From a virus, in the IMG/VR virus record IMGVR_UViG_3300048855_000042, positions 1 through 48,308 of that record: a stretch of 48,308 nt of DNA; one strand, given 5' to 3'. The position numbers and the translations under genes are program-made. Below are positions 21,174-24,800 of the stretch, piece after piece; positions within the stretch are counted from its first letter, which is position 1; every line of letters begins with the position of its first letter. Below the pieces are notes generated by a model, which saw only the letters and a program-made list of their open reading frames with translations, did not search any database and had not been told where the DNA came from.

Positions 21174-21485
21174 ATGGAACAGGAACCCGCATGGGTCCCC
21201 AAGGCCCGCACGCTGCGCGCGGAGGGGCTCTCCTACGACAAGATCGCTGCGCGCGTAAAGCACGACAAAGCGACCGTCTACTACTGGATCGGCCTATCTC
21301 CGGAGGGCCGCCAGGACCGCAGGGACAAGGCCGCCGACCGCGCGCGGCGCCTGAAGGATTCGCCGGAAGGGCGAGCGCGGCTCGACGAGTATAACCGCCG
21401 ACATAGCATCCGCTTGCAAGCCCGAGCCGAGGCCAACGAGACCGGCGAGGACTACCACGCAATCTGCCGCAGATGGGGGCTTTGA
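21174..21485 (+). CDS. HTH-containing 103-aa protein
   Basis: LRAEGLSYDKIAARVKHDKATVYYWI is helix-turn-helix-like. Confidence 0.6.
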   Translation: MEQEPAWVPKARTLRAEGLSYDKIAARVKHDKATVYYWIGLSPEGRQDRRDKAADRARRLKDSPEGRARLDEYNRRHSIRLQARAEANETGEDYHAICRRWGL

Positions 21486-21721
21486 TGGAGCTCTTCCACG
21501 TCATCGACGACGGGGTCGTCATCCTGCGCCACAAAGGCGGCCGGTACCGGCAGACGAAGTTATACCGGCGCGGCAACGACCTCTACGCCGGGCTCGGGTC
21601 CGAATTCGTCCGTCTCCTGACGGGCGGCGGCAGGACCGATCCGAACGTCTCCTGGCAGGGCTATCCCCATCCCGGAACGGCGCGCGATCCGGCGTCGCCG
21701 TACATGCCGAAATGGGGATGA
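21473..21721 (+). CDS. Hypothetical 82-aa protein (alternative start 21485, TGATG overlap)
   Basis: ORF. No domain recognised. Confidence 0.55.
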   Translation: MGALMELFHVIDDGVVILRHKGGRYRQTKLYRRGNDLYAGLGSEFVRLLTGGGRTDPNVSWQGYPHPGTARDPASPYMPKWG

Positions 21722-22737
21722 CGGCCTATTACAACGAGGTCGAACCCTATGCCGCCCAATGGCTGCGCAATCTCATCGCCGCCGGACATATCGCTCCCGG
21801 CGACGTGGACGAGCGAGACATTCGCGACGTTCGGCCTTCAGATCTGGCAGGCTACACGCAATGCCACTTCTTCGCCGGCATCGGCGTCTGGAGCTATGCC
21901 CTCCGGCTCGCCGGCTGGCCGGACGACCGGCCCGTCTGGACCGGCTCCTGCCCGTGCCAACCTTTCTCCTCGGCAGGCCGAGGCGGCGGGTTTGCTGACG
22001 AGCGGCACCTCTGGCCGCATTGGCACCATCTCATCCGCGAGTGCCGACCTGACGTCGTCTTTGGCGAGCAGGTTGCGAGCAAAGACGGCCTCGGCTGGCT
22101 CGACCTTGTTCAAGCTGACATGGAAGGCGACCGTTACGCCCTCGGGGCGGTCCCTTTCCCTGCTGCGAGCGTCGGCGCCCCACAAGGCCGGCACCGAATT
22201 TACTTCGTGGCCGACGCCGACAGTAGGCAACTCGACAGGATCACAGTCGTTCGAGGGTCTTTCAGCGACCGGGCTCACGCCGGACGGGCGGAAAGTAGCG
22301 GTGAGCTTGGGCCACGTCGCGCGCCTTGCGAGCTGGCCGGCTCCGGCGGCGCTCGACCACTACACCCGGACGGGCTTGCGTCCGTCCCGGATCGAGAGCG
22401 GCCGGCAGACGGGCTATCTGAGCGAGATGGTGCTCCTGGCGAGCTGGGCGACGCCGGCCGCGCGAGACTATCGACACGCCAACGCCAAGCCGTTCTCGGA
22501 GCGGGGCGGCGGGAAGAAGGGCGAGCAGCTCAACAATCAGGTCGTTCATTCTGGGCCACCGCCGACTGGATCTGGTGCCGAGACGGCAAGTACCGGCCAG
22601 TTGAACCCGGCTCATTCCCGCTGGCTCATGGGGCTCCCGCCCGCGTGGGACGTCTGCGCGCCTACGGCAACGCGATCGTCGCGCCGGCCGCGCAAGCCTT
22701 CATCGAAAGCTACCTAGAGAGCGAGATGCTGTCGTGA
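21712..22737 (+). CDS. DNA (cytosine-5) methyltransferase; catalytic motifs in this frame, central region looks out of frame (see findings)
   Basis: FFAGIGV (motif I, 21868), PCQPFS (21952-21969), FGEQV (22060), [10 protein letters not shown] (22183-22212), [12 protein letters not shown] (22651-22686). Alternative start 21718 (ATGA overlap). A second ORF, 21749-22717 in the +1 frame, carries the TRD-like motifs. Confidence 0.75.
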
Positions 22738-24800
22738 GCGCACCCACCCTACACCTCGATTTCGAAAGCCGCAGCGCGATCGACCTGCGGAAAACGGGCG
22801 CCCACGCCTACGCCGAAGATCCGACGACGGGCGTCTGGTGCTGCGCCTACGCGGTCGACGACGAGCCGGTCGACATCTGGACGCCCGGCGAGCCCCCGCC
22901 GCTGGAGGTCCTCCAGTCGGTCGAGGAAGGCTGGCCGATATACGCTCATAACGCCTCCTTCGAGCGGCTGATATGGCGCCACGTCATGCCTCTCTATGAC
23001 TGGCCGGTGCCGCGCGACGAGCAGTATCGCTGCACGATGGTCATGTGCCACGCCATGGCGCTCCCCGGCGCCCTGGAGAACGCCGCGCCGGCGCTCGGGC
23101 TCGACGTTCGGAAGGACGCCAAGGGCCGCGCGCTCATGCTCCAGATGGCGAAGCCACGGACGGAAAGCCCGCTGACCTGGTGGGACGACGAGGAGAAAAA
23201 GCAGCGCCTCTATGCCTATTGCAAGCAGGACGTCGAGGTCGAGCGCGAGCTGCACAAGCGCCTCGTGCCGCTGAAGCCGTCCGAGCTCGACCTCTGGCAC
23301 CTCGACCTGAAGATTAATGACCGCGGCATCTATATCGACGAGACGCTCTGCCACCAGGCGCTCAAGGTCATCGCCGCGGCGACCGAGCGGCTGAACGCCG
23401 AGATCGCCCACGTCACGGATTATGCCGTCTCGGCCGTCACCAACGTTCAGTCACTGCTCACGTGGGTGAAGGGGCACGGGATCGACGTTTCCGAGCTCAA
23501 CAAGGAGAGCCTGACGGAGCTCCTCGTGCGGGACGACCTGCCGGATGACGTCCGGCGCGCGCTCGAGATCCGTCAGGAAGGCGGAAAAGCGTCCGTCGCC
23601 AAGGTGAAGGCGCTCCTGGCTTGCAAGAGCCGGGACGGCACCGCAAAGGGGCTCCTGCAGTTCCACGGGGCCAATACTGGCCGCTACGCCGCCCGCCGGT
23701 TCCAGCCGCAGAACCTGATGCGGCCAGATGACGACTACGACGCCGACCTCGCCATCGACGCCATCATGGGCGGCGACGCCGAGCGGATAGAGCTCCTCTA
23801 CGGGCCGCCGCTGTCGACCGTCGGGCAGTCGATCCGGGGGATGGTCGTCGCCAAGAAGGGCAACCGGCTGCTCGCCTCGGACTTCTCCAACATCGAGGGC
23901 CGCGGCATCGCATGGCTCGCCGGCGAGGAATGGAAGCTCGACGCGTTTCGCGCCTACGACACAGGGACGGGCCCAGACCTCTACAAGGTGTCCGCGGCCG
24001 GCATCTTCGGCGTTCCGGTCGAGACGATCGGCAAAGACAGCAAGCGCCAGATCGGCAAGGTCGCCGAGCTCGCCCTCGGCTACCAGGGCGGCCCCCGTGC
24101 TTTCAAAACGATGGCGAAGGGCTACGGGATGCGCATCGAGGAGCACTATGACGTCATCATGGACAACGCCGACCCGGCGCTGATCGATGAGGCTTTCGAC
24201 GCGTGGGAGACCTATGGGCGCAAGCAGGGGCTGTCCGCTCGGACGTGGCTCCCCGGCGAAGTCGTCAAGCGCGCGTGGCGACGGAAGCACCCGGCGATCG
24301 AGACGTTCTGGAACGACATGGAGGCCGCGGCGATCGAAGCCGTCGAGCGGCCCGGCAGGGTCTGTATCGTCGGCCACCTCAAGTTCCGCAAGGCCGGGTC
24401 GTTCTTGTGGATGCAGCTGCCGAGCGGCCGGTGCCTCTGCTACCCCTACCCCGTCATCAAGGAAAAACGCACACCCTGGGGCACGAAAAAGCCGACGCTC
24501 CATTTCATGGGCGTCAACTCCCTGACCAAAAAATGGGAGCAGCTGTCGACCTACGGCGGCAAGCTCGCCGAGAACGCCACGCAGGCCATCGCCCGCGACG
24601 TGTTGACGGACGCGATGGTCCGTCTCGAGGCGGCCGGCTATCCGATCATCCTGACGGTGCACGACGAGGCGGTCGCCGAGCTGCCGGTCGGCCAGGGCTC
24701 GCTTGAGGAATTCGAGGCGATCATGCGGGAGCAGCCGAGCTGGTGCCCGGGCTTCCCGATCGCCGCGGAGGGCTGGGAAGGAGAGAGGTATCGGAAATGA
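22734..24800 (+). CDS. Family A DNA polymerase with 3'-5' exonuclease domain
   Basis: GTG 22734 (GTGA overlap). HLDFESRS (Exo I), YAHNASFE (Exo II), YCKQDVEVE (Exo III), RQIGKVAELALGYQGG, TVHDEAV. Confidence 0.92.
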   Translation: MSAPTLHLDFESRSAIDLRKTGAHAYAEDPTTGVWCCAYAVDDEPVDIWTPGEPPPLEVLQSVEEGWPIYAHNASFERLIWRHVMPLYDWPVPRDEQYRCTMVMCHAMALPGALENAAPALGLDVRKDAKGRALMLQMAKPRTESPLTWWDDEEKKQRLYAYCKQDVEVERELHKRLVPLKPSELDLWHLDLKINDRGIYIDETLCHQALKVIAAATERLNAEIAHVTDYAVSAVTNVQSLLTWVKGHGIDVSELNKESLTELLVRDDLPDDVRRALEIRQEGGKASVAKVKALLACKSRDGTAKGLLQFHGANTGRYAARRFQPQNLMRPDDDYDADLAIDAIMGGDAERIELLYGPPLSTVGQSIRGMVVAKKGNRLLASDFSNIEGRGIAWLAGEEWKLDAFRAYDTGTGPDLYKVSAAGIFGVPVETIGKDSKRQIGKVAELALGYQGGPRAFKTMAKGYGMRIEEHYDVIMDNADPALIDEAFDAWETYGRKQGLSARTWLPGEVVKRAWRRKHPAIETFWNDMEAAAIEAVERPGRVCIVGHLKFRKAGSFLWMQLPSGRCLCYPYPVIKEKRTPWGTKKPTLHFMGVNSLTKKWEQLSTYGGKLAENATQAIARDVLTDAMVRLEAAGYPIILTVHDEAVAELPVGQGSLEEFEAIMREQPSWCPGFPIAAEGWEGERYRK

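Follow-up and report, generated by a model that had tools for sequence, protein, structure and literature searches.

A phage C5 DNA methyltransferase gene with a conserved second reading frame inside it

We analyzed a viral DNA sequence of 48,308 nucleotides (nt), IMG/VR record IMGVR_UViG_3300048855_000042 (positions 1 to 48,308, the whole of which is called the window here), and in particular a C5 DNA methyltransferase gene whose conserved motifs are divided between two long open reading frames (ORFs) of the same strand, A and B. Both frames are conserved and, judging from the variation among homologues, under purifying selection, so that the gene is almost certainly dual coding. The B product probably forms part of an alpha/beta C5 methyltransferase, in which it would contribute target recognition and motif IX. 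The feature is real and not an artefact, and its mechanism already has a precedent in the methyltransferase M.EcoHK31I. What appears to be new is the selection on both frames, the wide spread over phyla, the blindness of curated resources to the second chain, and the length and modular make-up of that embedded chain. The two genes and their motifs lie at the following positions, at which both ORFs and all motif coordinates given in an earlier note on this sequence were confirmed.

Gene A, probable 21718..22737, + strand (ORF open from 21712, 21712-22737, 341 codons): C5 DNA methyltransferase large (catalytic) chain, alpha-like
Frame A, 21868-21888, + strand: FFAGIGV (motif I)
Frame A, 21952-21969, + strand: PCQPFS (motif IV)
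Frame A, 22060-22074, + strand: FGEQV (GEQV = motif VI, ENV-like)
Frame A, 22183-22212, + strand: motif VIII element (QGRHR; pattern QxRxR)
Frame A, 22651-22686, + strand: motif X element (YGNAIV; pattern GN)
Gene B, 21749..22717, + strand (322 codons; +1 relative to A): phrog_1008, putative beta-like chain
Frame B, 22202-22222, + strand: TSWPTPT
Frame B, 22328-22351, + strand: ASWPAPAA
Frame B, 22439-22474, + strand: third WPTP-type module
Frame B, 22601-22651, + strand: motif-IX-like LNP..WLMG.P..W element

Both frames of the gene across relatives

Frame B lies wholly inside A (21749-22717 within 21718-22737) on the same strand, and the full canonical motif set is found in neither frame alone: as the earlier note had described, motifs I-VIII and X are read in frame A and the central, conserved WPTP elements in frame B, and frame B also reads the motif-IX-like LNP..WLMG.P..W. 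We compared the gene with its relatives in two sets of viral loci, 80 found via frame-A peptides and 80 via the frame-B peptide LNPA[HF]SRW, with gene guanine-plus-cytosine (GC) contents of 0.50-0.67. In 160/160 loci, the matches to the N- and C-terminal parts of A share one frame and one open ORF, the centre of the window's B matches in the +1 frame (tblastn), and frame B is open from 50-115 nt past the A start until a few codons before the A stop. In the third frame, stops interrupt as usual, the longest open run being 36-125 codons. The question of which frame homologues use for 22215-22650, raised in the earlier note, was thereby answered for B: the segment is matched by B in the +1 frame in all loci, and the centre of A cannot be aligned.

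These comparisons decide against the first option that had been considered for the split motifs, namely two compensating indels arising from assembly error or from recent decay of a single-frame gene. Such indels are the simplest reading of one sequence, and some public contigs do show private frame changes. Because both frames are kept open and the same two-frame layout recurs in 160/160 independent loci, this option is refuted; finished genomes of cultured phages likewise show the layout, selection acts on both frames, and we give the option virtually no credence.

Stop codons were counted against two synonymous-shuffling nulls. Across 80 genes, 4 stops were observed in the +1 frame when 235 were expected from shuffling the synonymous codons of A, and 77/80 loci contain none; reciprocally, no frame-A stop was observed in the centre of the gene, with 170 expected from shuffling the synonymous codons of B. 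The third frame agrees with expectation under both nulls. On this sequence evidence, each of the two frames is maintained open from end to end. The same architecture was found at gene GC contents of 0.47-0.55 in Escherichia coli phages K1ind1 and Bas80, Paenibacillus phage Shelly, Lacticaseibacillus phage R9.1 and Bacteroides phage BS-TP4 (0.47-0.50 in the Paenibacillus, Lacticaseibacillus and Bacteroides phages and in Bas80). In the four tested, K1ind1, Shelly, R9.1 and BS-TP4, the length of the +1 ORF exceeds that in 2000 synonymous shuffles (P<=0.001).

The selection acting on each frame was profiled by third-position (wobble) entropy at 4- or 6-fold degenerate codons for conserved A amino acids, and the profile was repeated in a second set of 52 further genes. 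Mean wobble entropy is 1.71 bits (second set, 1.61) at A codons 5-81, which are free, drops to 0.81 bits (second set, 0.77; Mann-Whitney p = 6e-7) at codons 84-167 and to 0.45 bits in both sets at codons 279-316 (p = 3e-9), and returns to 1.42 bits (second set, 1.40) at codons 319-335, which are free again. The suppression has sharp edges at A codons 84 and 316. The earlier note had asked for a search for dips in synonymous rate, and these two, repeated in the second set, are its outcome. The third position of A is the second position of B, and several A third positions are invariant in the first zone (P113 T in 80/80 genes, L132 T in 73/73, A152 G in 76/76) and in the second (V297 T in 79/79, P299 C in 74/74, L304 G in 80/80, V312 G in 79/79). 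The wobble position of B, in turn, is frozen over the conserved parts of A and free (1.3-1.85 bits) in the centre only, where the frame-B third position is the freest and the amino acids of B are conserved and those of A are not. The gene can be divided accordingly:

21718..21960, + strand: A-only segment with N-terminal extension, motif I and first part of motif IV; B second positions free
21961..22212, + strand: dual-coding zone 1, A motifs IV-VIII over the B N-domain (ANLS.RQA...LRAS...first WPTP)
22213..22540, + strand: centre, B only; WPTP modules under B selection, with A an R/G/A/E-rich hypervariable linker that is merely open
22541..22660, + strand: dual-coding zone 2, A pre-motif-X segment FW..ADW..CRDGK.RPVEPG.FPLAHG.P.RVGRL over the motif-IX-like C-terminal segment of B; constraint at all three codon positions
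22661..22737, + strand: A-only segment with the motif X helix; the basic B tail ends at TAG 22715-22717

The entropy pattern therefore points to two translated, selected proteins and not to ribosomes hopping from A to B to A. Genuine dual coding, one of the options listed in the earlier note, is strongly supported by the open frames together with the constraint at synonymous sites.

Tests confined to the window are less telling. The earlier note had reported, from hand counts, that third-position GC (GC3) switches between the frames, and our counts reproduce the pattern: B is higher over 22215-22540 (0.83, A 0.58) and 22601-22660 (18/20, A 12/19), and A is higher over 22661-22717 (15/18, B 12/19). 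The length of the +1 ORF gave P = 0.002 against synonymous shuffles of A and P = 0.10 against a null using the codon usage of the neighbouring polymerase gene. That DNA polymerase gene (22734-24800) itself holds a 448-codon antisense open frame, with an ORF of 403 amino acids (aa) from its first start (minus strand, 23451-24662). In a high-GC window with an antisense frame of this length, ORF length alone is therefore no evidence, and a +1 ORF longer than expected by chance is only suggestive when judged from the window alone. Since the window-only tests are indecisive, the case beyond chance rests on the comparison with relatives.

Start signal, recoding and database fusions

The embedded gene appears to have its own translation start. 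In 57/80 relatives, the ATG of B is formed by A codons D39-V40 and follows AGGAG after 8 nt. At D39, the codon is GAT in 68/78 genes, versus 37% GAT at other Asp columns, and R35 is encoded by the rare AGG in 27/80 genes, versus 6/340 at other Arg columns; R35 AGG and S36 AGC/AGT together build the AGGAG, 8 nt, ATG arrangement for B. In K1ind1, B starts with GGAG, 6 nt and an ATG that immediately follows a frame-B stop. In the window, frame B is open from 21722, and the candidate signal read from the sequence is:

21736..21751, + strand: candidate ribosome-binding site and start of B (GAGG 21736-21739, 9-nt spacer, ATG 21749-21751)

These start codons also bear on the possibility that frame B is not translated at all and is a by-product of high GC and A codon usage, its frozen sites being elements acting at the RNA or DNA level. 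The window value of P = 0.10 with polymerase codon usage and the 448-codon antisense frame in the polymerase gene fit such a view. Against it, rare codons are enriched in such a way as to build a Shine-Dalgarno (SD) sequence and ATG, the +1 ORF persists at gene GC contents of 0.47-0.55 with P<=0.001, the B third position is freest in the centre, where B amino acids are conserved and A amino acids are not, and the B motifs are kept across phyla although the nucleotide sequences differ. We rate an untranslated frame B as scarcely plausible.

Recoding, a further option of the earlier note, would require a +1 shift near 22205 and a -1 shift near 22655, or the first only, and would yield a colinear A-B-A or A-B chimera. 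Such a chimera would give the canonical order of motifs I-VIII, variable region, IX and X, and ~49 single-frame A-to-B fusions and one A-B-A protein (P0259) exist in public data. Recoding, however, needs neither an open frame A in the centre nor a conserved B beneath motifs IV-VIII, and both are maintained; B also has its own SD and ATG. As the earlier note had remarked for the window, a slippery site is lacking at the B-to-A junction: X_XXY_YYZ occurs near it in only 3/78 loci, each time at a different position. The A-to-B junction is likewise without a conserved shift-prone codon context. The fusions switch frame at scattered points, as indels would give, and the 1.6-kb contig that carries P0259 has several further frameshifts. 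Taken together, these points make recoding very improbable.

The fusions were recovered with a chimeric query, which returned the ~49 proteins in which the N-terminal half of A runs into B in one frame, with many switch points. At the DNA level, two of them each change frame once, at the first WPTP: P0253 from Pseudomonas aeruginosa, present on 4 contigs of that species, and P0275, present on 5 contigs. At the locus of P0253 (L086), the C-terminus of A, including the motif X region, has decayed and the C-terminus of B is intact. The positions are:

L085, 1501-2505, and L086, 1501-2493: fusion loci (fusion proteins P0241-P0336)

The sequences look like what indels produce when any change of frame leads into a long ORF, and they do not speak for recoding; the fusions may represent indel noise, or else variants that are functional or phase-variable. 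P0259, the one protein with a colinear A-B-A order, was considered as evidence for a canonical ancestor and rejected, its 1.6-kb contig being error-ridden or decayed. The last option of the earlier note, an evolved compensated frameshift that creates a new central domain, may fit a distant origin of the gene. It does not describe the present state, because the centre of A is hypervariable and constrained only to stay open. That B is a polypeptide of its own, with a start close to the 5' end of the gene and M.EcoHK31I as precedent, is beyond the options that the earlier note had set out.

The two chains and their probable roles

The catalytic chain is recognized in frame A. PF00145 matches at 46.1 bits (cut-off 22) and covers aa 76-174 only; TIGR00675 scores 36 bits, under its cut-off of 100.65; and phrog_363 matches A along its entire length (1.4e-82). 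Database searches found >8000 frame-A homologues, with 55-61% identity at ~98% coverage, and their alignment shows very good conservation of aa 1-167 and aa 278-335, with motifs I, IV, VI, VIII and X invariant or nearly so. Between these blocks, aa 168-277 cannot be aligned; the segment differs in length and is rich in R/G/A/E in all homologues, also where the host has a lower GC content. Neither a conserved variable region (target-recognition domain) nor motif IX was found between motifs VIII and X of the A chain. An AlphaFold model of the fusion P0253, which is not the window protein itself, gives its catalytic part, homologous to the A N-terminus, a predicted local distance difference test (pLDDT) score >90, and the best Foldseek matches of this model, M.HaeIII (1dct) and M.HhaI, identify a methylase fold. 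A is thus predicted to have a Rossmann-type large-domain fold.

The embedded chain belongs to phrog_1008, which the window's B matches at 8.5e-30 over aa 35-311 and which also takes in ORF28 of K1ind1 (2.6e-54) and gp56 of Shelly (8e-74). The frame-B product of the centre gave 4330 database matches, to proteins of 150-306 aa without a Pfam domain, and a B profile picked out, from 1.84 billion cluster representatives (clusters at 50% identity), 27,700 at E<=1e-3, with 8,895 reaching E<=1e-30. The N-termini of B homologues look like the +1 translation of methylase motifs, e.g. NATSSPxSASG. B consists of a leader, an N-domain (helix and beta-hairpin), a variable number of W/L-PTP modules and a C-terminal LNP..W.MG.P..W; its first 40-70 residues are unconstrained, and we propose that the leader is dispensable. 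Paenibacillus and Lacticaseibacillus B proteins read ...LANLS.(M/L)PG(S/T)E.ARKMT.TSG...W.TP(T/S)A.D (1-5 copies)...LNP.WVE.LMG(F/Y)PIGWT, and those of the Bacteroides phage and Bas80 diverge (LLPTP modules, LNPLFVAEMMGFPPDWT; ...FARQLMGYPQEWDD). By eye, the C-terminal element fits L.P......L.G.P..[FW], the spacing of motif IX, as in LTPRECWRLQGFPDWAF of the methylase of streptococcal phage MM1, and it sits where motif IX is expected, just ahead of motif X of A. No catalytic motifs were found in B.

We propose the following arrangement. A would be the large chain, providing AdoMet (S-adenosylmethionine) binding and catalysis (motifs I, IV, VI, VIII), a free linker and motif X. B would be translated from its own start as a second protein, dock on A via its conserved N-domain, and supply the small domain, that is, motif IX and, here, probably target recognition; together, A and B would form a methyltransferase heterodimer like M.EcoHK31I (alpha/beta). 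The assignment to this type is made because the motifs are divided between the frames and because the layout has its precedent in M.EcoHK31I, and B is assigned target recognition because the centre of A is unconstrained while the modules of B are conserved. A beta-subunit role for B is likely, and we infer that this phage translates B, that B associates with A, and that methylation depends on it.

In M.EcoHK31I, the beta chain, which carries motif IX, is encoded in another frame within the gene for the alpha chain, which carries motifs I-VIII as well as X, and both are needed (PMC2836561; PMC3404938). Methylation is lost when the start codons of beta are silently removed and returns when beta is provided in trans, and the association is weaker once the beta N-terminus is deleted (PMC2836561; PMC3404938).

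Several observations weigh against the assignment of A and B to such a heterodimer. Pfam and NCBIfam scans of B proteins from four phyla returned no match, PDB sequence searches with B were empty, and the B profile meets no PDB methyltransferase even at E<=10. AlphaFold models B alone with a mean pLDDT of 64.9, confidently only in one helix and one hairpin, and the B part of the natural fusion P0253 scores 40-67 in its model, which says nothing on how B packs. Natural fusions of the A N-terminus to B without motif X exist, unexpected on a strict alpha/beta model. The window has GAC GTT at D39-V40 and so lacks the common B start, having instead ATG 21749 after a weaker GAGG. Finally, M.EcoHK31I alpha is reported to hold the target-recognition domain, and the corresponding centre of A is an unconstrained linker.

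Part of this evidence would fit a B that is real and selected but acts outside the methyltransferase, as an overprinted accessory protein (anti-defence, regulator or DNA-binding), with A sufficient by itself, its linker floppy and little or no target-recognition domain present. No homology of B to a methyltransferase model or structure was detected, confidence is low over most of its predicted structure, which may be disordered and hold short W/L-PTP motifs, and a different embedded +1 ORF (phrog_16143) occurs in canonical streptococcal methylases that need no extra motif IX. We nevertheless regard an accessory role as unlikely: A is hypervariable between motifs VIII and X and thus without a conserved small domain, in every locus examined B lies within a methylase of this type, and in none by itself, its C-terminal element fits the motif IX pattern at the expected place, and M.EcoHK31I demonstrates that the layout can be that of an obligate heterodimer (PMC2836561). 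A bolder form of the heterodimer proposal, possible but one from which we lean slightly away, makes B the whole specificity subunit, with 1-5 modular W/L-PTP recognition units and motif IX, encoded in the +1 frame of the A linker. The A linker being unconstrained, phages could therefore add, delete and swap recognition modules freely. If true, this would be a widespread, cross-phylum, frame-split design for the fast retargeting of orphan methyltransferases.

Some further observations concern the ends of A and its neighbours. The most likely start of A is ATG 21718, correcting 21712, because homologues begin MTAYYNE and because this ATG forms an ATGA overlap with the TGA stop of the upstream ORF (21473-21721). 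At the other end, the TGA stop of A overlaps the GTG start (22734) of the DNA polymerase gene in GTGA, and the two overlaps are signs of coupled translation of the upstream ORF with A and of A with the polymerase. The N-terminal extension of A (window 21721-21777) resembles A's own motif X (22657-22713; hhalign P = 0.003 over 22 columns), and the P0253 model confidently shows a strand and helix at the equivalent place. This extension, which is missing in the Firmicutes and Bacteroides relatives, may perhaps be a duplicated or permuted motif X. The gene lies in a phage replication module in the order exonuclease, single-strand annealing protein, DNA-binding protein, A/B gene and DNA polymerase (phrog_17, 5e-116).

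Distribution and known systems

Searching with B by tblastn identified 208 GenBank phage records, versus 186 records with full-length A, and B relatives occur in phages of Proteobacteria, Firmicutes, Bacteroides, cyanobacteria and actinobacteria; the plasmid records examined annotate only frame A at the match. To our knowledge, the ~970 nt read in two frames are among the longest same-strand dual-coding segments known in a virus of bacteria. Both ORFs are annotated in K1ind1 (ORF29, 'C-specific methylase', and ORF28, 'Mte8-like protein'), in Xanthomonas phage PhiXhv-5 and in Paenibacillus phage Shelly, where gp55 is accompanied by gp56, annotated as 'g55 internal gene'. Other GenBank records annotate A only or B only. 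In Cylindrospermopsis phage Cr-LKS3 (L083, 1243-1980), frame B alone is annotated, as a 'methyltransferase' of 245 aa, and a complete frame-A methylase is unannotated; the label 'putative Mte8-like protein' is given to the embedded ORF in GU196279 (ORF28; L084, 1405-2097) and in further Kagunavirus records. The meaning of the 'Mte8' label was not found, and one relevant paper uses the term without explanation. Pfam and NCBIfam hold no model for B, NCBI standard annotation does not call it, and our literature search found no published analysis of this A/B family.

The family indicates that the layout is not peculiar to one restriction-modification enzyme, and has practical consequences. Expressing the annotated methylase alone may yield an inactive or unspecific enzyme, indels in the centre of the gene create misleading fusion proteins in databases, and synonymous recoding of such genes, in phage engineering or codon optimization, would destroy the partner protein. 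The family is also a large natural data set on two proteins sharing one sequence.

Embedded +1 ORFs have been described before in the C5 methylase genes of Streptococcus pneumoniae phage MM1 (ORF13/ORF14), of the Streptococcus thermophilus 5093-group and of Tn5252, as 'total overlap in different reading frames' (PMC5601072). Like B, these streptococcal ORFs are same-strand, +1, inside a phage C5 methylase gene, and start in its N-terminal third. Unlike A, the streptococcal methylases (MM1, 5093, SpSL1) keep the variable region and motifs IX and X in frame, and unlike B, their embedded ORF has ~140-165 codons, extends over motifs I-VIII only and belongs to phrog_16143, which matches phrog_1008 only at 5e-4. 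We confirmed the embedded ORF in fully canonical methylase genes of GC ~0.41 in MM1 (L172, 7480-8637), 5093 (L173, 6067-7026) and SpSL1 (L169, 528-1610). The embedded +1 ORF of SpSL1 gave P<0.0005 against synonymous shuffles, and phrog_16143 products end ...WNGKCLTA.I.E..K..NVCSL.DILEE.V.E.(F/Y)FLS. The methylase of pneumococcal phage SpSL1 (specificity RCRGC per GenBank; RCGRC/RCRGC in PMC6755750) was considered as a family member and rejected as a canonical enzyme.

That C5 methylases tolerate a two-chain make-up is shown by M.AquI and split M.SssI (PMC3404938), and M.AquI is described there as a two-polypeptide C5 methyltransferase split in the variable region. Unlike A and B, the M.AquI subunits are consecutive (I-VIII, then IX-X) and not nested, and motif X stays with IX. 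Among nested phage genes, those of the Rz/Rz1 type (PMC11445585) resemble A and B in being +1 nested on the same strand, with products that cooperate. Rz1, unlike B, has ~60 codons, versus a ~320-codon overlap here that covers conserved enzyme motifs.

The multispecific C5 methyltransferases of the Bacillus phages SPR, phi3T and rho11s carry tandem target-recognition domains between motifs VIII and IX. The 1-5 W/L-PTP modules of B look analogous in arrangement to these modules, which vary in number; unlike those of B, the SPR, phi3T and rho11s modules share polypeptide and frame with the catalytic motifs.

The closest parallel remains M.EcoHK31I, in layout and, as far as the motif-IX-like element of B can be judged by eye, in the published motif split. 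As in that enzyme, the second chain lies entirely inside the gene for the large chain, in a different frame, with its own start codons. The N-terminal part of the M.EcoHK31I beta chain mediates association and is partly dispensable, and for B we propose that the N-domain docks and the leader is dispensable. M.EcoHK31I belongs to a type II restriction-modification system; the A/B gene, unlike it, is an orphan in a phage replication module. The beta chain of M.EcoHK31I has 176 aa, and B, unlike it, is nearly as long as A (322 versus 339 codons) and carries repeated W-PTP modules.

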